64,000 bases of DNA. Origin: a virus. Below the pieces are notes generated by a model. It made no database searches. It had not been told where the DNA came from and saw only the letters and a program-made list of their open reading frames with translations. This document shows positions 1,278-62,706 of the stretch, piece by piece. The first letter of the stretch is position 1; the number at the start of each line of letters is the position of its first letter. The position numbers and the translations under genes were made by a program. The stretch lies in the IMG/VR virus record IMGVR_UViG_2850695442_000001; one strand, written 5' to 3'.

Positions 1278-1484
1278 GAACCTTGTAAGAAATAAAAAAA
1301 TAAATAAAAAATCACCTAATAATTACATTAAACATTGCCCCAAGCTAGTTTGTAGAGTATTTAAGAGGATTTTTATTGTGTTTTAATATTATCATTTTCG
1401 ATAATATTTGTCAAGGGTTATTATATAAAGAAATAAATACTGTTGTCAAGAGTGATTATTTCAGAAAAAGCAGGAAGGATATAC

Positions 1485-1823
1485 ATGGAAATTAAAATTA
1501 ATGAGGAGTCGTATTTTACGGTAGAAGAAGTAATGAAAAAAACGGGACTATCAGAAAATTCACTTAAAAGTTATAAAAGTTCACGATTTCCCGAAATCAA
1601 AGAGATGGTAGTAAAAATTGGGGGAAAAACTTTATATTCCAAGAAAGCTATTGATTTTTTAAACAATCGTAAAACTGAAATGGGGTTTACTGAAGCTATT
1701 GAACTTGCTGGAATTGAATTCCCATCCAAGAAAGAAGCTGCCGCATACTTTGGCTTTCCGCCAGAAGACCTATCACGATATTTGCGCGTGAAAAAAGCAA
1801 TCGAAGCAGTAGAAAAAAATTAA
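1485..1823 (+). CDS. small HTH DNA-binding protein, possibly the partition adaptor or regulator
   Basis: RBS AGGAAGG before ATG 1485. N-terminal FTVEEVMKKTGLSENSLKSY and C-terminal FPSKKEAAAYFG are HTH-like. Immediately upstream of the actin gene. Confidence 0.55.
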   Translation: MEIKINEESYFTVEEVMKKTGLSENSLKSYKSSRFPEIKEMVVKIGGKTLYSKKAIDFLNNRKTEMGFTEAIELAGIEFPSKKEAAAYFGFPPEDLSRYLRVKKAIEAVEKN

Positions 1824-1913
1824 TTGATTTTTGTAAAAATTATCAAGGATTTTTTGAAACAAAAATATACTCATATTGTGAAGCGAAAAAGATTCACAAG
1901 AAAAGGAGAAAAA

Positions 1914-3068
1914 ATGGCAATCACAGTTAAGAAGACACTCATTTCCATTGACTTGGGAAATAAACAAGTAAAGTTAGAATCACGCGCAACAGGTGTTAAA
2001 GTTGCACCAAGTGTACTGTTAGATACGCGGTATGCACCAGATTTTTATCTTGGAGGGAAACCTGAAAATACACCGTCTATTTATCGTTTACGCCTCGATA
2101 AAGAAGAAAAATCTTTCCATTTTGGGGAGACGATAAACAGCTGGGGGAAAGCTTATGCAGGTCATTGGGAGACTTCCATTGGTTTTGGAATGAAACGCTA
2201 TACCAAACAGATTTTTAAAGAGCTTTTCCTATTTTCTGTCGCACGCGTAGTCAAGGAGATGAATACCAATCATCCTGTTCTTGATATTGTCACAGGATTA
2301 CCAACAGGCGATTATAAAGACCCAAAGGTCATAGATTATATTCGGAAAATAGCGAAAGGCTTCCACACTATCTATGTGGATGATAAGCCAGTTAATTTCG
2401 ATATCGCTTCCATTACGTTTTATCCTCAGTATCTTGGTTCTATTGCAAATAATTGTTTCCAATGGAACGGAGAAAAGTATCATCATTTGACTCAAAATCT
2501 TTCTAAGTTTTCAGGCATCCGGTATGGCTTCATGGATATTGGCGGTGGAACAATTTTGAGCGATGTTGTAGAAGGACTAAATTTTAACCTTTCAGAAACT
2601 AAAACAACAAGTCGCAATGGTGTTCATCGCCTGTTGGGACAAGTCGCTAAAGAGGCGAGTATTTCTCAAGTAGAAGCTGAACTTGCTTTATGGCATACGA
2701 ACGAGCAAGGACGTTATATTATAGGCGAGAAAACAGCAGCCCCAAAAGATATTACAGATATTGTATTGAGAGCTAAAAAAGCTTATACAGAAGTTGTCTT
2801 GCATGAAATTGAAACTCAATTTTTCCAAATTGATTTAGATGACCGACTTTCATCTGTTCGTTTGAATAAAATTTTTATCACGGGTGGAGGTGCATATCTT
2901 ATTGATGTGGACCAGCTGATTGAAGGAATTGAGAACAGCTACAATATTCCCGAAGAATTTACAGCATCTGGAGATTTCATTGAACTGCTCAATAATTCAA
3001 CAACTGCTAATGTTGAAGGTTATTTCAAATTAGGGGTGGCAGCTCACTTGGGTGAATTTGTGGAATAA
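1914..3068 (+). CDS. parM: ParM/StbA/Alp-type actin-like plasmid segregation ATPase
   Basis: Actin-fold motifs ISIDLGNKQVK (phosphate 1), MDIGGGT (phosphate 2) and ITGGGA (adenosine). RBS AAGGAG before ATG 1914. Confidence 0.85.
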   Translation: MAITVKKTLISIDLGNKQVKLESRATGVKVAPSVLLDTRYAPDFYLGGKPENTPSIYRLRLDKEEKSFHFGETINSWGKAYAGHWETSIGFGMKRYTKQIFKELFLFSVARVVKEMNTNHPVLDIVTGLPTGDYKDPKVIDYIRKIAKGFHTIYVDDKPVNFDIASITFYPQYLGSIANNCFQWNGEKYHHLTQNLSKFSGIRYGFMDIGGGTILSDVVEGLNFNLSETKTTSRNGVHRLLGQVAKEASISQVEAELALWHTNEQGRYIIGEKTAAPKDITDIVLRAKKAYTEVVLHEIETQFFQIDLDDRLSSVRLNKIFITGGGAYLIDVDQLIEGIENSYNIPEEFTASGDFIELLNNSTTANVEGYFKLGVAAHLGEFVE

Positions 3069-3086
3069 AACTTAAAAAGGAGAAAG

Positions 3087-3938
3087 ATGATGCTTGAAAA
3101 AGAAGTACAACCTGTTTTGGGTATCTATTTATCAGAAGTTAAATATTCTTACGATGACTACCAAGAAGCTTGTTGGAACATGAAACTTCTTAGTTATTAT
3201 CCAGTTAATTTACCTTGGTTGAAATTCTGGGGGAAAATAAACGAAGCGCTGTTTCGTTATTTTTACGAGGACACGGATGAGGGGGAATTGGAACAACTAT
3301 TAAACAGTCATCAAACAGAATTTGAACGCCTGGTGATAGTGGATGATTTGGTTCTTGAACGACTTGTGATTGGTTTTAAAATTTTAAATTCTCTAGCAAG
3401 TCCTACACTTGTGCATGCTCGTATCTCTTTCAATAGAATTGCAGCAGAAGTGGGAATTTCCCTTGACGATTTAGAAATCTTTATTCCTGAGATGTACAGT
3501 TATTACGACTGGGAAGATATTGATAGCGAACCTGAAAATTATGATGTCACAGACCTCTTTGCATCTATTGATACAATAGATAAATTTAACAATCAATCCC
3601 AAAATCAAAGAGAACTCGCACGCTTTTCTAAAGCATTGGATAAGACGGGACATAAAGTTATTAGTTATCGTTTCCGCGATTTTCAAGAAAGTGAAGGGAA
3701 ACTTTTTACAAGACTATTTGTGTATTTGTTAAATGTTATCGCACAGCGCAAGCGTACAAAACTACGCAAGTATCTGTTGGAATATAGTAATCACAGTGAT
3801 TATGTGCAGAACTCGTTCGGTTTGCGAAAACAAACCGATAAAAAAGGACGCTGCTATCTGCATGATGATTTGATTGGGCAAGACTTTGAGATTGATGAAA
3901 TTCTAAAACTTTACCATTTAGATGTATCAAAGTCATGA
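3087..3938 (+). CDS. hypothetical protein
   Basis: 283-aa ORF with RBS AAGGAG, in an operon with parM. Confidence 0.7.
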   Translation: MMLEKEVQPVLGIYLSEVKYSYDDYQEACWNMKLLSYYPVNLPWLKFWGKINEALFRYFYEDTDEGELEQLLNSHQTEFERLVIVDDLVLERLVIGFKILNSLASPTLVHARISFNRIAAEVGISLDDLEIFIPEMYSYYDWEDIDSEPENYDVTDLFASIDTIDKFNNQSQNQRELARFSKALDKTGHKVISYRFRDFQESEGKLFTRLFVYLLNVIAQRKRTKLRKYLLEYSNHSDYVQNSFGLRKQTDKKGRCYLHDDLIGQDFEIDEILKLYHLDVSKS

Positions 3939-3953
3939 TGGAAAGGAATTCCT

Positions 3954-4217
3954 ATGGTTATGAGTGACCCAAAGTATAAAGATTTGCTTTGCCCCTATTG
4001 TGGTACTTCTAATCGTTTTCCGACGGCTTGGGCAGAAGACCAACGTTGTATTCATTGCGATAAGTGGATGGTGCATAAAGACAAAAATATCATGGAAGAA
4101 GAACTTCGGGTATTGAAAGAACATTATCAAAAAGAAAAGAATGCTATTTATGAAAGGTACCGTGGAAATTATTATGAACCACATCTTAAGGTCATTGAAG
4201 AAGGCAAGAAAGTATGA
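3954..4217 (+). CDS. small zinc-ribbon protein
   Basis: CPYC...CIHC pairs; RBS present. Confidence 0.6.
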   Translation: MVMSDPKYKDLLCPYCGTSNRFPTAWAEDQRCIHCDKWMVHKDKNIMEEELRVLKEHYQKEKNAIYERYRGNYYEPHLKVIEEGKKV

Positions 4218-4456
4218 GTAGGATTGACAGAACGACCGCTGATTATATTTTTAGCGAATTATCGGCAAAGCATAAAATTTCAATAGAAAATGTGAAACAG
4301 CGATTTGTAACAGGAGAAGGCTTTGAACCTATACAAGGATTGTGGCGCAGAGATATGAGCATGGGATATCAAGACAAACGTGGACGCTTGCACGTTCGTC
4401 CGGTCACTCTTAAAGAATGGCAAGAAGATTGGAAATGTATGAAGGAACAAGAATAA
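4214..4456 (+). CDS. hypothetical protein
   Basis: ATGA overlap with the previous ORF (translational coupling). Confidence 0.6.
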   Translation: MSRIDRTTADYIFSELSAKHKISIENVKQRFVTGEGFEPIQGLWRRDMSMGYQDKRGRLHVRPVTLKEWQEDWKCMKEQE

Positions 4457-4572
4457 TATGATACTATTTATTATTTTGCTCATTGTCCTTATTATAGGAA
4501 CAATAATCAGTCATGGTCTTGTACGTGGTGCAGACCCTCGACAATAAAATAATTCACCGAAGGAGAGAAATC

Positions 4573-4839
4573 ATGAAACAATATAAGATTGATAAAATTT
4601 TAAACCACTTAAAAGAACAGAAAACTATTACAAGTTTAGAAGCTTTCCAGCTCTACAACATTACACGTTTATCTGCCATTATCTATGTTTTACGGCACAC
4701 TCACCATCTTTATATTACCAATGATGATTTTAAAGCCAAGGACGGCACACATTTTGCTCGTTATCATTTGCATGAGGGAGAAAGTGCTCCAGATGTTACG
4801 GTCGCAAAGGGACAAATGTCTATTAAAGATTTTATGTAG
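4573..4839 (+). CDS. phage-type winged HTH protein
   Basis: ILNHLKEQKTITSLEAFQLYNITRLSAIIYVLR pattern; RBS AAGGAG before ATG 4573. Confidence 0.6.
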   Translation: MKQYKIDKILNHLKEQKTITSLEAFQLYNITRLSAIIYVLRHTHHLYITNDDFKAKDGTHFARYHLHEGESAPDVTVAKGQMSIKDFM

Positions 4840-4944
4840 CTTTTGCTCGTTGTAAATCAAATTATTTTGTAAGAATATGAGAAATGTGCATCCAGGGTAT
4901 TGAACAATCAATACTCTGTGTTTGCCATTAGGTAGAGGAATTGT

Positions 4945-6000
4945 ATGTCAAATAAATATAAAGCAGCATATAGAGCAACTGATGAAGGAGCAAGAGGAAC
5001 GTGGGGGCTAGTTGAGAAGGAAGTAGGGATTGCTTATGAAAATATGTATGGTATCCAGAAGTCCGACGGTAACGGCTGGTTAGGATGGCTTAAAAGTGGT
5101 AATGGTTTTACTTCGGAAGAAGAATTTAGAGTGAAGGAAGAGTACACTCTTAGATATTATGATTATAGCGAGATGGGGACTCTAAGGACAGAACAAGGGA
5201 GTGGAGTATTTTTATTTGATGCTCAGGAGAAGGCGGGGGCTTTCATTGTTGAAGTGGTTGAGCAAATGTTTATGGATGCTAATTCATTAAAAGTTGAACA
5301 GATTGAAACCTCACCAACTTTGTTTATGAAACGATTATTTGATGATTATCATGATATTTTAAGTCAAGCACATGATAAATTTTTGGCAGAAGCTATTCGC
5401 TACGAGAACAATCAGCCTACTTCTCTTGAAGCACTGTGTGTGAAGAAGCGATATATTAAAATATTGCCTAAATTTCGATTCATACTCTGTAATTTGCTTG
5501 TGACGTGCTTCATTCTTGGTGGGATTTTCGCTAAAACTCAAATTATCTTTGTTTCTATAATGATACCTATAAGTATAATTTTGTTGGTCTTGCAGGTATT
5601 GGAGGATAGGGAAGGCATTGCTGATGGATATTCTCGTTTTTTGAAGCATACTACAAAAAATTATAGAGATTTTCTTTCTATCTTTGAAAAGTATCCTAAC
5701 CTTAGTGTGAAAGGTTTAGAGTATTTTGGCTATCAAGACCCAGTAACATACAAATTATTTAATGCTGTGATGACATTTGCCTTTAATAGTTTTACATTAG
5801 CGGACACACAAGGAGATAAGAAAGCCTTGGAACGCATTCTCCGACCAATTGTAGCTGATTTATTTAGACAGGTACAACTCAATTATAGAGAGCATTTAGA
5901 GATTGAACAAGCTGCCGCCAATGCACAAAAGCGGCAATTACAACAACAAATTGATTCTGATTTACACGCGTATGAGCATCGAATATTTAAAGAATTATGA
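4945..6000 (+). CDS. hypothetical membrane protein
   Basis: 351-aa ORF with two adjacent hydrophobic segments (FILCNLLVTCFILGGIF; IIFVSIMIPISIILLVL). Confidence 0.7.
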   Translation: MSNKYKAAYRATDEGARGTWGLVEKEVGIAYENMYGIQKSDGNGWLGWLKSGNGFTSEEEFRVKEEYTLRYYDYSEMGTLRTEQGSGVFLFDAQEKAGAFIVEVVEQMFMDANSLKVEQIETSPTLFMKRLFDDYHDILSQAHDKFLAEAIRYENNQPTSLEALCVKKRYIKILPKFRFILCNLLVTCFILGGIFAKTQIIFVSIMIPISIILLVLQVLEDREGIADGYSRFLKHTTKNYRDFLSIFEKYPNLSVKGLEYFGYQDPVTYKLFNAVMTFAFNSFTLADTQGDKKALERILRPIVADLFRQVQLNYREHLEIEQAAANAQKRQLQQQIDSDLHAYEHRIFKEL

Positions 6001-8501: not shown

Positions 8502-8807
8502 TTGAAGTTAAACGATGTACCAATGATAAATCTAAAGAAGCGTTTGAGATGTACGCTAAAGTTATTAATGAGTTTAAGCCAACACCAGTGCGTTACCGTG
8601 GAGATTGGCTTGATATTGAGAAGAATTACGACATTGATAATAGGGACTGATTCTTACTATCCAAGCGGTCTTAAATTTTATGATAAGAATGGTTATCAAT
8701 CACTCAAAGAAAGTGAAATTCATGAAAATCTTGATATATTTAACGCTTATCAAGATTATAAAGATGTAGATGATATATGGTTAATAAAAAAATTGACTAT
8801 TAAATGA
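8502..8807 (+). CDS. hypothetical protein
   Basis: RBS GGAGG upstream; co-oriented with neighbours. Confidence 0.5.
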   Translation: MKLNDVPMINLKKRLRCTLKLLMSLSQHQCVTVEIGLILRRITTLIIGTDSYYPSGLKFYDKNGYQSLKESEIHENLDIFNAYQDYKDVDDIWLIKKLTIK

Positions 8808-8819
8808 ATCGAGGGTTAC

Positions 8820-10337
8820 ATGAGAGAACTCATAATTGATAATTTTGCAGGTGGCGGTGGCGCTTCAACAGGAATAGAAATGGCAATTGGTCGCTCGGTG
8901 GATGTTGCGATTAACCATGACCCGAACGCTATTGCAATGCACAAGGTCAACCATCCGACTACAAGACATTATTGTGAAGATGTTTTTCAAGTTGACCCTC
9001 ATGAAGCTACGAGAGGTCTCCCCGTTGCACTTTGCTGGTTTAGTCCTGATTGTAAGCATTTTTCTAAGGCAAAAGGCTCTACACCTGTTTCAAAGAAGAT
9101 TAGAGGTTTAGCCTGGGTAGCGGTCAAATGGGCAAAAGCAGTGAAACCGCGGGTCATCATTTTAGAAAATGTTGAAGAATTTCGGACATGGGGACCACTG
9201 ATAGAAACTGAAAAGGGATTGTTTCCAGACCCAGCTCACAAAGGCGAAACCTTTGAAGAATTTAAGTATGAGCTAGAAAAATGTGGTTACATCGTTGAAT
9301 TTAAAGAACTCAGAGCTTGTGATTATGGAGCCCCCACGACAAGAAAAAGGCTGTTTCTTATTGCACGTTCGGACGGCAAGCTAATTGTTTTTCCTGAAGC
9401 AACTCATGCCCCCAAAGATACTTTAGAGGTGCTTAGTGGATTAAAGCTTCCTTACCATTCTGCTGCAGAATGCATTGACTGGAATATTCCTGGACAATCT
9501 ATCTTTGACCGAAAGAAACCACTGGCAGAAAATACCATGAAGCGGATTGCCAGAGGTTTACAAAAATTTGTAATTCATAATCCAAACCCTTTTATTGTCA
9601 GAATCGGACAAACAGGATTTGGTGGAGACCGACTTTCCTATTCCTTAGAGCAGTCATTAACCACAATTACCACAAAAGCAGAACACTGTTTGGTTACGCC
9701 TACCATTATGGTTAATACCTCTGGACATCCGGGTTCAAGTGTTACTGAACCACTCAAAACAATTACTACTGGCGGGCATCAGGCACTTATTCAAACCAGT
9801 TGGATTAAAGAAGATTACTCCAAATCCACAGGGACAGATATCAGTAAGCCTGTTGGAACGATTACTGCACAAAGTGTTCATCAAGGTGTTATGTCGGCTT
9901 TTCTCTGCAAGCATTATGGCGGAAATTATCAAGGTGCAGGGATTGATGTCAGAAATCCAACCGATACAATAACGCAGGTTGACCATCATGCATTGGTTGA
10001 AGCGTTCCTGATAAAATATTATGGCTCGGATACGGGTCAAAGCCTCAATGACCCACTTCACACGATTCCAACTAAGGACCGGTTTGGTTTAGTTAGAATT
10101 GAAAATCAAGATTATCGGATAGTCGATATCACAATGCGGATGTTGCAACCGCATGAGCTTTCTAAAGCCCAAGGATTGCCCGAAGACTACATTATCGACC
10201 GAGACCCCGAAGGAAATAAAGTAAGTAAAGCCGTACAAACCGCAAGAATTGGGAACATGGTGGTTCCACAATGCGCAGAAGCGCTTGTTCGAGCCAACTT
10301 ACCAGAGTTATGTCAAACCACTCAAAATTCGAACTGA
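8820..10337 (+). CDS. dcm: DNA (cytosine-5)-methyltransferase, orphan, phage/plasmid type
   Basis: Motif I DNFAGGGGAS, motif IV SPDCKHFS, motif VI ENVEEF, motif VIII RKRLFLIAR, C-terminal IGNMV. No cognate endonuclease is adjacent. Confidence 0.95.
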   Translation: MRELIIDNFAGGGGASTGIEMAIGRSVDVAINHDPNAIAMHKVNHPTTRHYCEDVFQVDPHEATRGLPVALCWFSPDCKHFSKAKGSTPVSKKIRGLAWVAVKWAKAVKPRVIILENVEEFRTWGPLIETEKGLFPDPAHKGETFEEFKYELEKCGYIVEFKELRACDYGAPTTRKRLFLIARSDGKLIVFPEATHAPKDTLEVLSGLKLPYHSAAECIDWNIPGQSIFDRKKPLAENTMKRIARGLQKFVIHNPNPFIVRIGQTGFGGDRLSYSLEQSLTTITTKAEHCLVTPTIMVNTSGHPGSSVTEPLKTITTGGHQALIQTSWIKEDYSKSTGTDISKPVGTITAQSVHQGVMSAFLCKHYGGNYQGAGIDVRNPTDTITQVDHHALVEAFLIKYYGSDTGQSLNDPLHTIPTKDRFGLVRIENQDYRIVDITMRMLQPHELSKAQGLPEDYIIDRDPEGNKVSKAVQTARIGNMVVPQCAEALVRANLPELCQTTQNSN

Positions 10338-12401: not shown

Positions 12402-12474
12402 AGCAGAGTAGAGCAATGGCAGCTCATCTGGTTCATACCCAGAATTGGTGATGGTTCGAGTCCATCCTCTGCAA
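12402..12474 (+). tRNA. tRNA-Met(CAU), initiator-like
   Basis: Cloverleaf: acceptor AGCAGAG/CTCTGCA with a 1:72 mismatch, D stem GAGC/GCTC, anticodon arm TCTGG-TTCATAC-CCAGA, T arm GATGG-TTCGAGT-CCATC. CCA is not encoded. Confidence 0.9.
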
Positions 12475-12479
12475 TTATT

Positions 12480-13055
12480 GTCTCATCTCGGTTATACAGG
12501 GCTTGATAACCCTCCGAGAGCCTTTCTAAGTATGCCCTTAGTGGTGTATGAAAGTAACCTTTGTAAGTTTTAGTGGTGATAACCCCTAAGCGCGAAGATT
12601 GAAGCGTGTGAGCGTGAATTTGCTAGTAAAAGCTAGTGTGAAATGGAAGGTGTGGCAATGTTTTATCACTTTAGTGCATTCTTCTTTTCGGTAGATAGAA
12701 TTATACGGTGGTTGTTGCGAAAACCACAAGCAGCCGTATAGCTCAGTGAGGCTTGCTCTAGCTGGCAAGGAAACCTGAGTATTGCTAAGCAATCTGCTGT
12801 GTCGTGAAACTGAGAAATCAGGGTATAAGAGAAGCGAGAAGTTCAAGTAGCCCAAGACACATACTCATAATAAAAACATTTACTAAATTATATGTTGAAA
12901 TCTGTATCGGGTGAAAGTTGGGAGATTTTGTTTCTCGCCCAATCATTAAAAGCAATAGGAGCTAAGAGAGTTGCTACTCTTAGTAGAGCCTGTTGGGATT
13001 GTCGCATAATTAAGAGGAGTAAAACATTGTTTGGAGAAAAACCGGGACAATATTT
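12480..13055 (+). ncRNA. large ornate structured RNA candidate (ROOL-like; GOLLD is the alternative)
   Basis: ~575-nt GC-richer segment between tRNAs with only weak RBS-less ORFs and many helices: CTCGG/CCGAG, TATACGG/CCGTATA, TGGTT/AACCA, CTCAG/CTGAG, CTTGC/GCAAG, TTGGG/CCCAA, CTAAGAG/CTCTTAG, ATTGTC/GACAAT. Size and tRNA context fit ROOL. Confidence 0.55.
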
Positions 13056-13056
13056 T

Positions 13057-13145
13057 GGAGAAATAGAATGTAATTTGGTATCAGGCTAGACTTGAAATCT
13101 AGCAATCGCAAATGCGGTGTGTCGGTTCAAATCCGACTTTCTCCT
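13057..13145 (+). tRNA. tRNA-Ser(UGA)
   Basis: GGAGAAA/TTTCTCC acceptor, CTAGA-CTTGAAA-TCTAG anticodon arm, long variable arm, GTCGG-TTCAAAT-CCGAC. Confidence 0.9.
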
Positions 13146-13222
13146 TTGCCATTGTGGCGCATTTACCTAGTTTTTGTTGTTATTGTTTTGGTAGGAATTT
13201 TGCTGAAAATCCTACCTCTCAT

Positions 13223-13295
13223 AGAGAAGTAGCTCAGCGGGGAGAGCAGTGGTTTTACACTCCATATGTCAGCGGTTCAAATCCGTTCTTCTCTA
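13223..13295 (+). tRNA. tRNA-Val(UAC)
   Basis: AGAGAAG/CTTCTCT acceptor, GCTC/GAGC D stem, anticodon loop TTTACAC (stem has a T.T mismatch), T loop TTCAAAT. Confidence 0.85.
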
Positions 13296-13389
13296 TAAGC
13301 GTCAAATCTATGCTAGTAGATTTGGTGGTATTCTAGCAGATGCAATTTAAGAGCGTTCGCTTCCTCTTTGACAAATCGGAAAGACGAAA

Positions 13390-13461
13390 GTGCTTGTAGC
13401 TCAATGGTAGAGTGTTGGCTTACAGAGCCAAAGGTTGTAGGTTCAAGTCCTACCAAGCATG
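13390..13461 (+). tRNA. tRNA with ACA anticodon (nominally Cys; Arg(ACG)-like body)
   Basis: GTGCTTG/CAAGCAT acceptor, TTGGC-TTACAGA-GCCAA anticodon arm, GTAGG-TTCAAGT-CCTAC T arm, G73. Confidence 0.85.
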
Positions 13462-13496
13462 TAGTTATCATGATGATTTTTGATAGCATAATAACT

Positions 13497-13570
13497 CTGA
13501 ATATGGCTCAGTTTGGTAGAGCACCTGTTTTGGGAACAGGAGAGCGCAGGTTCAAATCCTGCTATTCAGA
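13497..13570 (+). tRNA. tRNA-Pro(UGG)
   Basis: CTGAATA/TATTCAG acceptor, CCTGT-TTTGGGA-ACAGG anticodon arm, GCAGG-TTCAAAT-CCTGC. Confidence 0.92.
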
Positions 13571-13580
13571 TTTTACAAAT

Positions 13581-13651
13581 GGTTTTGCTCAACAGTCAGA
13601 GTATCCAAACAAATTTGGGTTGGATAGGAGTTCGATACTCACACAGAACCA
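13581..13651 (+). ncRNA. degenerate tRNA-like element
   Basis: GGTTTTG/CAGAACC 7-bp acceptor-like stem, CTC/GAG D-like stem, long TATCCAA/TTGGATA arm with an 11-nt loop, and GAG-TTCGATA-CTC T-like arm. Confidence 0.5.
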
Positions 13652-13679
13652 CTATATATTTAAGAAAGAAGTAAAAAGG

Positions 13680-59292: not shown

Positions 59293-62200
59293 ATGGATTT
59301 GATTAAAGAATTGGATATTAAAAATGATGTTCCTTCCGTAAAATTGCGCTATTATCAAGAAGAAGCGAAAGCTGCGATTGAAGCAGAATGGGAAAAAGGC
59401 AACAAAAGAACCCTAGTTGTTATGGCAACAGGGTGTCATAGAGTCGGTGAAGGTCTTTTAATGGCTGATGGAACTGTTCAAAAAGTTGAAAATATCAAAG
59501 TTGGTGATAAATTATTAGGGGGTGACGGCTCTCCTCGTACAGTATTAAAACGGCATGAAGGAGAAGATGAAATTTATGAGATTAAACCTATCAAAGGAAA
59601 AAGTTTTTTTGTAACAGGGAATCATAAACTAACTTTGGTGAAAACAAGAAGGCGTGGAGATAATTCGCCACAGTATCCATCTTATCAGTATGATGCTTCT
59701 TTTGTAGATGTATCAGTAGATGATTGGCTTTCATGGGGTAAAACACAAAAGCATATCCATAAATTAGTTAGAACAACAGGGGTTGAATTTCTAAATAAGG
59801 TTACTTTACCTCTTCCCCCTCATTTTCTTGGTGTTCTTCTTGGAGATGGTGGCTTGAAGTATCAGTTAAATGTGACTACTATGGATGAAGAAATTGTTGA
59901 AGAACTCATTAATCAAACTAAGGCACTTAATATGGAGCTTAGTCATACACCTGCTGGACGAGCAAAAACATATAAATTTTTAGATAATCATAAGCACAAT
60001 AATAAATTAAGAAATATTTTAGATACTTTAGATTTAACTGATAAAGGCTCAGAAGAAAAATTTATTCCACAAATTTACAAAACTGCATCTACGCAAGATA
60101 GACTAGAATTAATTGCAGGATTATTAGATACAGATGGAAGTTTAAGCAATACAACTTATGATTTTACATCTAAATCAAAACAATTAGCAGAAGATTTGGT
60201 ATTTCTTTGTCGCTCGGTTGGTTTAGCCGCTTATATGTCTGAAGCTAAAAAAGGAATAAAAAGTTTAAATTTTGAAGCAATTTATTGGCGTGTATGTATT
60301 AGTGGAAATACTGATAGAATTCCATGTAGAGTAGCGCATAAAATTGCTTCCAAAAGAAAACAAAAGAAAAATGTACTTAGAACAGGTTTTACTGTGACTC
60401 CTGTTGGAAAAGATAATTATGTTGGTTTTACAGTAGATGGAGATAATCGTTACTTACTAGATGATTTTACGATTACTCATAACTGTGGCAAAACGATAGT
60501 CATGGCAAAGGTCGCGGAAGAACAACAACGTCTTCATCCAGACAAACAAATTTTAGTGCTTGCTCACCGTGGAGAACTGCTAAATCAAGCAATGAATAAA
60601 TTTGAAAAAGCAACAGCACTTACCACTGTAAAAGAGAAAGCCCAAGAGACAAGTATTGGTTCGGAAGCACAAGTCGTTGTTGCTTCTGTTCAAACCATGA
60701 AAAATGATAAACGTCTGCATCAATTTGACCCAGAACAGTTTAGCACCATTATGGTCGATGAGACACATCATATTATGGCAAAGATGTACCGCAAAGTCAT
60801 TGACTATTTCCCCAATGCGAATATGTTAGGTGTCACAGCGACAGCTGACCGGACAGATAAATTAGATTTAGGAGAAGTATTTGACAGTGTTGCTTATGAG
60901 TACGATTTAGCAACAGCTATTAAGGACGGCTATCTTTCTCCATTAACCGCTCAGACTATTCCAATTAATATTGATTTAAACGGCGTACATATGAAAGCAG
61001 GAGATTTTAATGAATCTGAACTTGATGATGTTTTAGGACCTTATTTAGAACGAATCGCAGATGAAATGGTCCTCGCGTGTGAAGGACGACAAACAGTCGT
61101 TTTTATGCCGTTGATTGCGACTTCCAAACGTTTTGTGGATATCCTAAATAAAAAAGGCTTTCGTGCTGCTGAGGTCAATGGACAATCTAAGAATCGGGAT
61201 ACCATTCTCAAAGATTTTGAAAATCGGAAATATGAAGTGTTGGTGAATGCCATTTTGCTTACTGAAGGTTGGGATTGTCCGACTGTGGATTGTATTGTTA
61301 TGCTTCGTCCAACCAAAAGCCGAAGTCTTTATGCACAGTGTATTGGGCGGGGAACTCGCTTATCGCAAGGAAAAAAAGAGTGCCTTATTTTAGATTTTCT
61401 CTGGAATAGTTCTAAGCACGCACTCTGTCATCCTGTTTCGCTTCTTACCAAAAATGAAGCACTGGTACATAATGCGTCACTCCTCGCACAAAATGGCGAA
61501 CCAAAAGCTGTTGACGAGTTAGTTGAAGAAGCGAAAGAAGAATATAAAAAAGCACAATATGCACAGTTGACACGAGAATTAGAAGCTCTTTCTATTCGGC
61601 GCCGTCGGAAAAAGCTTGACCCTTTTGAAATTTTTCTAGGGAATGCGAATGGTGTGGATTTCTCTGATGAAACCCAGAAAATGACAATGAGTCAAAATCA
61701 AAAAAACTGGTTGGATAGTAATAATATAGATACTTCTTTGATTAAAACCTACGCACAAGCTGAGAGTTTAATCAATCAATTAACACATCGTGAACCAGAC
61801 CAAGCTACGCTGAAGCAAGTGAAACTTCTTAAAGATAAAGGATTTAAACAGGCTGACCAATGGACAAAAGTAGAAGCGTCCGAAGTCATAGGAAAAATAG
61901 CAGAAAACTTCTGGGAAGTGCCACGCTCAATCCATCCAAATACATATCAACCAAAACGCTTAGAAAATATTGAAAATAAAGAGAATTCTTCCTCAATACA
62001 ACACTCTGAGATAAAAGAGCGTATTAAAAAATTTGATAAACTGATAGAAAAGCAATTTTTAGAGTTGATTGCATCTGATAAAGAAGTGACAGCTAATGAT
62101 AAGTTACGAAAAGCCATGCTTCAAGCCATGATGGAAGAAAAAAGCAACAGAGTAACGGCAATAAAACGAGCCTTTTTACAGAAAAAATCTCAAAAAGAAA

Positions 62201-62706
62201 TAGATGGTATTGTTTATCAAGAAAACAAAGAATTTTACACTCAAACGAAGGAAGCTTGGAAAGTCTCAGAAGAAAAGCTTCGACAAGAAAAACGGCGAGA
62301 AGCCCGCAAAAAGGAGCGGGTGAAAAAAGAACAAAAGCAAAAAGAAAAAATCATAAGTCGAGAAAAAGCCGAAGAAGTCAGCAAGGCGCGTGAAGATAAA
62401 ATTAAAGAGTTGTTTCCTGATGAATGGTACTTAGTTAAAGCACTTAATGGACGATGGATGAAAAAATATAAAGGGCGGATTACTGCTATCGCTCTTACAA
62501 AACGTGAAGGGGATTATTATGTGAGAGTCCACATTTCTGATTTTAATAAGAAAACATTCAAGGAAAGAAAAAAAAAACAAATTATTGACCATTTCTATGG
62601 GTTTAGCTCTGAAGTGCATTTTAGAGGCGAAAAGCATCTCTCTATTCCGATTTCAACACTCAAAGAATTTTTTTACAAGGAGACAGTGGTAGCAGCCATT
62701 TTGTGA
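59293..62706 (+). CDS. DEAD/DEAH-box SF2 helicase (phage/type III Res-like) containing an intein
   Basis: After splicing: ATGCGKT Walker A, VDETHH, TATADRTD, LTEGWD, YAQCIGRGTR; long basic C-terminal extension. Confidence 0.9.
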   Translation: MDLIKELDIKNDVPSVKLRYYQEEAKAAIEAEWEKGNKRTLVVMATGCHRVGEGLLMADGTVQKVENIKVGDKLLGGDGSPRTVLKRHEGEDEIYEIKPIKGKSFFVTGNHKLTLVKTRRRGDNSPQYPSYQYDASFVDVSVDDWLSWGKTQKHIHKLVRTTGVEFLNKVTLPLPPHFLGVLLGDGGLKYQLNVTTMDEEIVEELINQTKALNMELSHTPAGRAKTYKFLDNHKHNNKLRNILDTLDLTDKGSEEKFIPQIYKTASTQDRLELIAGLLDTDGSLSNTTYDFTSKSKQLAEDLVFLCRSVGLAAYMSEAKKGIKSLNFEAIYWRVCISGNTDRIPCRVAHKIASKRKQKKNVLRTGFTVTPVGKDNYVGFTVDGDNRYLLDDFTITHNCGKTIVMAKVAEEQQRLHPDKQILVLAHRGELLNQAMNKFEKATALTTVKEKAQETSIGSEAQVVVASVQTMKNDKRLHQFDPEQFSTIMVDETHHIMAKMYRKVIDYFPNANMLGVTATADRTDKLDLGEVFDSVAYEYDLATAIKDGYLSPLTAQTIPINIDLNGVHMKAGDFNESELDDVLGPYLERIADEMVLACEGRQTVVFMPLIATSKRFVDILNKKGFRAAEVNGQSKNRDTILKDFENRKYEVLVNAILLTEGWDCPTVDCIVMLRPTKSRSLYAQCIGRGTRLSQGKKECLILDFLWNSSKHALCHPVSLLTKNEALVHNASLLAQNGEPKAVDELVEEAKEEYKKAQYAQLTRELEALSIRRRRKKLDPFEIFLGNANGVDFSDETQKMTMSQNQKNWLDSNNIDTSLIKTYAQAESLINQLTHREPDQATLKQVKLLKDKGFKQADQWTKVEASEVIGKIAENFWEVPRSIHPNTYQPKRLENIENKENSSSIQHSEIKERIKKFDKLIEKQFLELIASDKEVTANDKLRKAMLQAMMEEKSNRVTAIKRAFLQKKSQKEIDGIVYQENKEFYTQTKEAWKVSEEKLRQEKRREARKKERVKKEQKQKEKIISREKAEEVSKAREDKIKELFPDEWYLVKALNGRWMKKYKGRITAIALTKREGDYYVRVHISDFNKKTFKERKKKQIIDHFYGFSSEVHFRGEKHLSIPISTLKEFFYKETVVAAIL
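59434..60483 (+). mobile_element. intein with LAGLIDADG homing endonuclease (350 aa)
   Basis: Starts CHRVGEGLLMADG, contains FVTGNHKL (block B), LGVLLGDG and IAGLLDTDG, ends FTITHN, followed by the C+1 Cys. Confidence 0.95.

Follow-up and report, generated by a model that had tools for sequence, protein, structure and literature searches.

A tRNA with anticodon UCA that is charged with tryptophan is the classical opal suppressor and the decoder of genetic code 4. Phages in which TGA has been recoded to Trp carry an opal suppressor tRNA(UCA) (Borges et al., bioRxiv 10.1101/2021.08.26.457843), and TGA suppressor tRNAs are said to be tryptophanylated in E. coli, as cited in the same work. Anticodon ACA is avoided by bacteria because its inosine form would read the UGA stop codon; a "tRNA-Cys-ACA" has been predicted in some N4-like phages, in annotations without functional study (PMC11927229). 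The RNAs ROOL and GOLLD occur in tRNA islands of phages and prophages (PMC5737381; bioRxiv 10.1101/2024.12.08.627333). Here we describe an ACA tRNA gene situated in a tRNA/ROOL array of IMG/VR record IMGVR_UViG_2850695442_000001, of which a stretch of 64,000 nucleotides (the window) was analyzed. The explanation that we put forward, tentatively, is that this gene is a local A34 allele of a Trp-like opal-suppressor lineage, an allele that probably no longer reads UGA, is probably charged little, and persists as a member of the co-transcribed array.

The ACA tRNA was called by ARAGORN as a 72-nt gene (Table 1) and matches the Rfam tRNA family RF00005 over the full model with 70.3 bits (E 1.2e-14; gathering threshold 29 bits), no non-canonical pair being flagged. 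Drawn as a cloverleaf, it has a 7-bp acceptor stem with first pair G1.U72, discriminator G73, a D-arm with stem GCUC/GAGU and the 7-nt loop AAUGGUA, an anticodon arm with stem UUGGC/GCCAA and loop UU-ACA-GA, the variable loop AGGUU, and the T-stem GUAGG/CCUAC. The features from which an earlier sequence-only reading of the window had started, namely anticodon loop TT-ACA-GA, variable loop AGGTT, G73, and D-loop AATGGTA, are all present in the gene. It is single-copy across the 2.76-Mb genome and does not encode CCA, as is the case for all 66 tRNA genes that ARAGORN found there.

An ortholog of this gene in another genus carries the anticodon UCA. For the 240-amino acid (aa) gene directly upstream of the array, a search of 5.8 billion clustered proteins returned one homolog only, a 238-aa protein (58% identical) on a JGI metagenome contig (L042) in which the actin-like ALP gene (66% identical), several small genes, the 238-aa homolog, the tRNA array, and ssb follow in the same order as in the window. 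The host of that contig belongs to a different genus, its IleRS being 68% identical to that of the window host and its G+C content 32%. The array of the relative consists of a Met-like tRNA with an insertion of ~25 nt, a tRNA-Met, a tRNA-Phe(GAA), and the 72-nt UCA tRNA. The tRNA region is identical on a second metagenome contig (L097), which comes from a separate ENA sample, and the anticodon of the ortholog reads TCA in both independent samples (JGI 3300073834 and ENA ERZ27257297). The sequence-only reading had named ACG or GCA in relatives as evidence that would tell against it; the relatives carry neither of these but TCA. The link to UGA that it had proposed holds by way of this orthologous UCA gene only, the window copy itself being ACA.

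The block formed by the preceding tRNA, the spacer, and the ACA tRNA is ~92% identical between the window and the relative, and its flanks are unalignable. Within the 72 nt of the ACA tRNA the two alleles differ at six positions (Table 1). All four differences in stems keep pairing (window/relative: G.U/A-U, U-A/U.G, G-C/G.U, and G-C/G.U), an outcome with a chance of ~1 in 16 if the changes were random transitions, and this is modest evidence that the structure of the gene is under constraint. The only transversion, which is also the only change that alters decoding, falls on wobble position 34, and A36 and G37 are common to both alleles. The spacer (13296-13389) equals the tRNAs in conservation, with 8 differences in 94 positions (~91.5% identity), the flanking protein genes being only 58-66% identical, and the single change in the stem of its hairpin retains pairing.

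The tRNA on the other side of the spacer differs in anticodon as well. On one scaffold it carries UAC (Val) in the window and GAA (Phe) in the relative (L042 11234-11306), with 12 differences of which 7 lie within the anticodon arm and variable loop. A compensatory change from A-U to G-C has occurred at its 1-72 pair, and the Phe loop of the relative, UUGAAGC, equals the tRNA-Phe loop of the host. This is an apparent natural switch of anticodon and identity, and changes of anticodon on a fixed scaffold look like a recurrent and possibly selected trait of the module. Because this change occurred in the same module, more interesting readings of the ACA tRNA stay alive.

The acceptor end points to tryptophan. 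Bacterial Trp determinants include G73, A1-U72, G3-C70, A9, C35, and A36 (PMC9976931, Table 1), and the B. subtilis set comprises the acceptor pairs G2-C71, G3-C70, G4-C69, and G5-C68 plus A9 (PMC9976931). The ACA tRNA has G73 (in both alleles), G3-C70, A9, C35, and A36; its first pair is G1.U72, that of the UCA ortholog A1-U72. The Trp-type pyrimidine at position 34 (C, or U in suppressors) is absent from the ACA tRNA (A34) and present in the ortholog (U34). Among the 66 tRNA genes of the genome, G73 is found in the ACA tRNA and in host Asp, Gln, Asn, and Trp only, and U72 combined with G73 is found only in host Trp (A1-U72) and in the ACA tRNA. From these elements we infer that Trp is the best-fitting identity of the lineage.

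Other identities fit less well. The major Cys determinants are U73 and G34 (PMC9976931), and both are absent from the ACA tRNA, which has G73 where host tRNA-Cys has U73, and A34; C35 and A36 are the Cys elements that it does contain. Bacterial Arg identity rests mainly on A20, together with C35 and G36 or U36, with G73 allowed (PMC9976931). The D-loop AAUGGUA gives U20 (the host Arg loop is GGAUA), and position 36 is A in both alleles rather than G or U, with C35 present. The sequence-only reading was therefore right that the gene has neither full Cys nor full Arg identity. A tRNA-Sec identity, which calls for a long variable arm and an extended acceptor/T architecture, was ruled out by the length of 72 nt, the 5-nt variable loop, and the 7/5 architecture, the "SeC" label given by ARAGORN to the UCA allele reflecting the anticodon only. 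Assignment of an isotype from body similarity was uninformative, the nearest tRNAs being of mixed isotypes.

Position 34 bears on both charging and decoding. E. coli TrpRS, in complex with its tRNA, recognizes C35 and A36 via hydrogen bonds, and A34 or G34 introduced in silico clashes with the enzyme (PMC12135181); a purine at 34 is predicted to fit TrpRS poorly. The only TrpRS of the host (G000 C1:2181900-2182925; L093 1345-2370, minus strand) is closest to D. radiodurans TrpRS II (E 4e-121), with E. coli and B. stearothermophilus TrpRS at ~1e-43. TadA of S. pyogenes edits tRNA-Arg(ACG), tRNA-Leu(AAG), and 27 mRNA sites with consensus YUAMGRA and core UAMG; the positions equivalent to bases 35 and 37 are the only less conserved ones, and G36 is present in both tRNA substrates (PMC11472039). 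The host TadA probably shares this relaxed streptococcal specificity, since the host has two tRNA-Leu(AAG) genes. The loop UUACAGA of the ACA tRNA fits the consensus at six of seven positions (32-35, 37, and 38) and has A instead of the core G at 36, and deamination of A34 to I34 is disfavored because A36 leaves the loop without that core base.

The two tRNA-Leu(AAG) genes (G000 C1:2253984-2254070 and 2393639-2393725; loop UUAAGGA) make up a second A34 species beside Arg(ACG) in this host, so the claim of the sequence-only reading that A34 is nearly restricted to Arg(ACG) fails here. S. pyogenes is likewise reported to have tRNA-Leu(AAG) as an A34 species (PMC11472039). The best candidate for the host tadA gene (G000 C1:184115-184552; 135 bits to PF14437) lies ~3 kb before the window, just beyond the left end of the element.

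TGA serves as a sense codon in no gene seen of either element. Genes of the window end in TAA 35 times, in TAG 16 times, and in TGA 14 times, and the 30 kb seen of the UCA-bearing element have 19 TAA, 4 TAG, and 4 TGA stops. A code-4 assignment was rejected for the window, where the joins obtained by reading TGA as sense proved to be separate small genes with their own start codons. In the ~30 kb of the UCA-bearing element no TGA-interrupted gene was found, TAA or TAG following within 0-10 codons of every TGA. At 8502-10337 of the window, a 101-aa open reading frame (ORF) ends in TGA (8805-8807) and a C5 methylase starts in the same frame 12 nt on; the match of frames is probably coincidental, the methylase profile being complete from its own ATG. 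A supply of Cys codons as the rationale for the ACA tRNA was also ruled out, Cys codon usage of the element equaling that of the host (TGT 70% and 72%, respectively).

The explanation that we put forward would combine these features into a small lineage of tRNAs with NCA anticodons and a Trp-like acceptor end (N1-U72 and G73, with A9, C35, and A36). In its UCA form the tRNA would receive Trp from the host TrpRS and decode UGA (and UGG), as an opal-suppressor-type tRNA in a tRNA/ROOL array upstream of ssb in a rare integrated element of the conjugation type. In the window copy A34 stands without G36, so TadA probably leaves it unmodified; A34 would remove pairing with UGA, fail the TadA core motif, and fit TrpRS poorly. 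With A34 unmodified and a purine at 34 poor for TrpRS, UGA reading and most charging have most likely been lost, and the ACA copy would survive as a "disarmed" suppressor, an intact, co-transcribed, and processed member of the array. We infer the direction from UCA to ACA only from function and from the near absence of ACA in bacteria.

Several observations weigh against this explanation. Of the acceptor pairs in the B. subtilis Trp set, those at 2-71, 4-69, and 5-68 are U-A, C-G, and U-A in the ACA tRNA, and position 37 is G where host tRNA-Trp has A. The host TrpRS is of the D. radiodurans TrpRS II type, so the steric argument taken from E. coli may not transfer. No UGA-interrupted client gene was found in the ~30 kb of the relative or in the 64-kb window, and without a client gene the suppressor role of the UCA/ACA lineage itself is unproven. 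Only two lineages are known, and ACA could be the older allele. The ACA tRNA has not diverged more slowly than the spacer (6/72 against 8/94), and the clustered substitutions of the Val/Phe pair suggest that anticodon changes in the array can be selected and need not mean decay.

Among the alternatives, a role other than decoding is rather unlikely: the ACA tRNA could mark the co-transcribed array for processing by RNase P or RNase Z, or it could act as a decoy or a spare against tRNA-targeting host defenses upon entry into a new cell, its anticodon then being free to vary or selected to differ. ROOL is abutted by tRNAs of varying isotypes on both sides in four genomes, the element, which encodes a VirB4-like ATPase and an NlpC/P60 hydrolase, has the array upstream of ssb, recT, and the methylase gene, both tRNAs of the conserved block differ from their orthologs in anticodon, and a degenerate tRNA-like fold follows the array. 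The ACA tRNA does not itself flank ROOL directly, however, genes for an anticodon nuclease or for tRNA repair were not found in the vicinity, and the two anticodon loops of its neighbor look like proper Val and Phe loops, the latter identical to the host one, so that the array would seem to hold real decoding tRNAs. We consider it unlikely that the gene is an active recoding tRNA, charged and with I34 or a broadly wobbling A34, that reads UGU/UGC and UGA and so causes misinsertion at Cys codons, opal read-through, or both. TadA is encoded 3 kb upstream of the window and is probably of the relaxed type, six of the seven loop positions suit it, the structure of the tRNA is preserved, and the sister UCA allele would read UGA, so that UGA decoding may be a conserved task. 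Against this stand the core G36 that TadA needs and the A36 that the tRNA has, the cost of misreading at Cys codons, and an element with no in-frame TGA genes to serve and with unshifted Cys codon usage. I:A pairing is weak, which also counts against an ACA/ICA decoder. A broader form of the decoding idea, which we regard as quite doubtful, takes the two tRNAs as a conserved module in an early-entry region beside ROOL, with anticodons that switch from one lineage to another (UCA/ACA and GAA/UAC). The NCA tRNA would then be an element-encoded modulator of host decoding at UGA/UGN, with U34/A34 as an on/off or specificity switch; as ICA or as unmodified ACA, for example, it could read UGU/UGC/UGA.

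The two remaining alternatives are both very unlikely. An assembly or sequencing error at 13422, with UCA as the true anticodon as in the relatives, would agree with a loop in which the relatives' allele differs at that base alone and with the near absence of ACA from bacteria otherwise (it is missing from all 25 species of one survey; PMC5289835). The assembly is finished-grade (3 contigs, 100% complete), the site lies outside any homopolymer, and five other real differences mark the alleles as diverged copies, all of which speaks against an error. The sequence-only reading had derived the gene from an Arg(ACG)-type tRNA by the single change G36A, and a recent one-off mutant of this kind, captured together with tRNA-Pro from a host tRNA operon, is just as improbable. 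In its favor, host operons place Pro(UGG) immediately after Arg(ACG), as it stands after the ACA tRNA, and by BLAST the 3' part of the ACA tRNA together with Pro matches that pair in three genomes of the same genus at 71-72%. The most similar host tRNA is Arg(ACG) (72-75%), and three Saccharibacteria tRNA-Arg(GCG) genes have an identical anticodon arm and variable loop. A36 and G37 are nevertheless found in both alleles, which differ at base 34, and since A36 predates the split from the UCA ortholog a recent G36A event is rejected; the related array, moreover, has no Pro after the ortholog. G73, G1.U72, and U20 of the ACA tRNA contrast with the host Arg tRNAs, where A73 and G1-C72 are common to all four species and A20 is seen in both that were drawn (ACG and CCG). 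Metagenome tRNAs of at least eight isotypes (Arg, Met, Thr, Trp, Ala, Asn, Pro, and Ile) contain the 24-mer of variable loop and T-arm that the ACA tRNA has in common with host Arg(ACG), and the phage tRNAs closest to it belong to five isotypes (Asn, Thr, Arg, Pro, and Trp). The lineage as a whole may nevertheless have a distant origin in Arg(NCG) tRNAs.

Table 1. Features of the tRNA/ROOL array and differences between the ACA tRNA and its UCA ortholog (window coordinates unless a contig or tRNA position is given)
Feature	Position	Strand	Evidence and remarks
tRNA-Met(CAU), first in array	12402-12474	+	ARAGORN; Rfam 55.3 bits
ROOL RNA (RF03087)	12463-13064	+	171.8 bits against gathering score 99.1; full model 1-574
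tRNA-Ser(UGA), long variable arm	13057-13145	+	ARAGORN
tRNA-Val(UAC)	13222-13296	+	ARAGORN, Rfam; ortholog in related element is tRNA-Phe(GAA)
Conserved spacer between tRNA-Val and ACA tRNA	13297-13389	+	12-bp hairpin at 13300-13327
ACA tRNA	13390-13461	+	canonical 7/4/5/5 cloverleaf; G1.U72, G73, A9, U20
Anticodon ACA	13422-13424	+	loop UUACAGA at 13420-13426; position 34 is 13422
tRNA-Pro(UGG)	13496-13571	+	ARAGORN, Rfam; missing from array of related element
Degenerate tRNA-like fold, after tRNA-Pro	13581-13652	+	fold -19.3 kcal/mol, z -2.08
tRNA-ROOL-tRNA locus, window	12402-13145		
tRNA-ROOL-tRNA locus, L039	9683-10392		
tRNA-ROOL-tRNA locus, L040	9618-10316		
tRNA-ROOL-tRNA locus, L041	6624-7335		
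ACA/UCA allele difference	tRNA position 1		window G, relative A; acceptor stem
ACA/UCA allele difference	tRNA position 16		window U, relative C; D-loop
ACA/UCA allele difference	tRNA position 34		window A, relative U; anticodon wobble
ACA/UCA allele difference	tRNA position 40		window C, relative U; anticodon stem
ACA/UCA allele difference	tRNA position 65		window C, relative U; T-stem
ACA/UCA allele difference	tRNA position 71		window A, relative G; acceptor stem

The arrangement tRNA-ROOL-tRNA, with ROOL directly abutted on both sides, is shared by the window and three other genomes (Table 1), and the flanking isotypes differ in each: Met/Ser in the window, Phe/Trp in L039, Asn/Met in L040, and Ser/Asn in L041. 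Direct abutment by tRNAs in four genomes suggests that ROOL is freed by tRNA-processing enzymes. A scan of the array for promoters and terminators gave background level. The first tRNA-Met has an A1xA72 mismatch at the top of its acceptor stem, an unpaired 1-72 being a hallmark of bacterial initiator tRNAs, and just two G-C pairs at the base of its anticodon stem; it may be an initiator, an elongator, or a tRNA-Ile2-like species. Its ortholog in the relative (L042 10818-10915, equal to L097 958-1055) has the insertion of ~25 nt after the 5' half of the anticodon stem, ahead of the loop UUCAUAC, and ARAGORN thus reads it as a 98-nt "Asn(AUU)". For the tRNA-Ser the best Rfam model is tRNA-Sec, at 38.9 bits and below the gathering score of 47. 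The degenerate fold after tRNA-Pro comprises an 8-bp acceptor-like stem, a 3-bp D-like arm, a 7-bp arm whose 11-nt loop includes AAAUUUG, and a T-like arm of 4 bp with the loop UUCGA; it was not called by ARAGORN and had no Rfam match at E<=1, and it could be either the remnant of a tRNA or a mimic of one.

The window corresponds to positions 187379-251378 of a 2.70-Mb chromosome in a genome of 37% G+C. Close DNA matches were to Lactococcus phages only, via an IS605-type tnpB, and on this ground the host is regarded as Lactococcus-like. Its own tRNA set is complete and includes Cys(GCA), Trp(CCA), two Arg(ACG), and two Leu(AAG). Genes near the array are all on the + strand, and the array sits upstream of ssb, recT, and the methylase gene. 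The neighbors encode an actin-like ParM/ALP protein, the C5 methylase, TnpB, SSB, RecT, a helicase, a DUF1351 protein, a topoisomerase, and an HNH/RRXRR protein, and further an IstB-like ATPase, a VirB4-like AAA_10 ATPase, an NlpC/P60 hydrolase, and an antirepressor. No structural phage protein was found with PHROGs among ten large ORFs of the window, and the carrier looks like a large integrated element of the conjugative kind from a rare family. At 59293-62706 the window encodes a 1137-aa SNF2/ResIII helicase with Hint and LAGLIDADG homing-endonuclease domains near its N-terminus, which probably contains an intein.

Further copies of the ACA tRNA were sought in several collections. Exact-pattern scans of IMG/VR gave no relevant match, only unrelated tRNAs; a pattern scan of GTDB genome contigs returned the three Saccharibacteria tRNA-Arg(GCG) genes and two non-tRNA matches and nothing else, and that of JGI metagenomes 37 matches, all unrelated tRNAs of several isotypes. 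BLAST found no ortholog in 400 Streptococcaceae and 400 Lactobacillales genomes, and none was found in phage and plasmid databases. Neighboring proteins had no match in IMG/VR, nor did the 284-aa upstream protein have a homolog in a word-indexed search. A HMMER search of all libraries with the ALP protein gave one close cluster only, whose other contigs are too short or without tRNAs; contig L095 ends before the tRNA position. On contig L098 from a Logan assembly (1480-5215), a truncated ALP copy (233 aa) precedes genes for an OLD-family/AAA_15 ATPase, which has a TOPRIM domain, and for a helicase. The latter two form a Gabija-like defense pair, and the tRNA array is absent from this contig.

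Compared with cellular tRNAs, the ACA tRNA shares G73, U72, G3-C70, A9, C35, and A36 with bacterial tRNA-Trp(CCA) and its UCA derivatives. The 7-nt D-loop of its lineage (AAYGGUA) resembles that of host tRNA-Trp (AAAGGUA); the ACA tRNA differs from host tRNA-Trp in being less than 64% identical overall, in lacking G2-C71, G4-C69, and G5-C68, and in having G37 instead of A37, and A34. With tRNA-Arg(ACG), the canonical TadA substrate, it shares U33-A34-C35, the variable loop AGGUU, and the T-stem of host Arg(ACG), but Arg(ACG) has G36, A20, and A73 with G1-C72 where the ACA tRNA has A36, U20, and G73 with G1.U72, and the ortholog of the ACA tRNA has U34. It would pair with the Cys codon UGU as tRNA-Cys(GCA) does, but lacks U73 and G34.

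Among mobile genomes, the N4-like phages resemble this element in having an annotated ACA tRNA. As in the described ROOL/GOLLD islands, ROOL lies within a tRNA cluster of a Lactobacillales mobile element; the carrier is not evidently a phage, and the published descriptions, as far as we have consulted them, mention no suppressor-type or ACA tRNAs. If the ACA copy is simply inactive, it is a minor curiosity. Together with its UCA sister it forms a natural allele pair for wobble control of suppression, TrpRS charging, and TadA specificity in Lactobacillales, and together with the Val/Phe switch it suggests that the anticodons of mobile-element tRNAs can be remodeled on a fixed scaffold. Should the doubtful switch module prove true, a suppressor-type tRNA system would for the first time have been described outside phages. 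The recoded phages offer the closest parallel, with a tRNA cluster on a mobile element in a Firmicute host of standard code, UCA as the sister allele, and the host TrpRS as the likely charging enzyme. The present carrier differs from them in its conjugative appearance and the lack of phage structural genes in the window; there is no in-frame TGA in either element, and ACA is unable to read UGA unless deaminated. Suppressor-type tRNAs are in this way extended from recoded phages to a non-recoded, conjugative-looking element.

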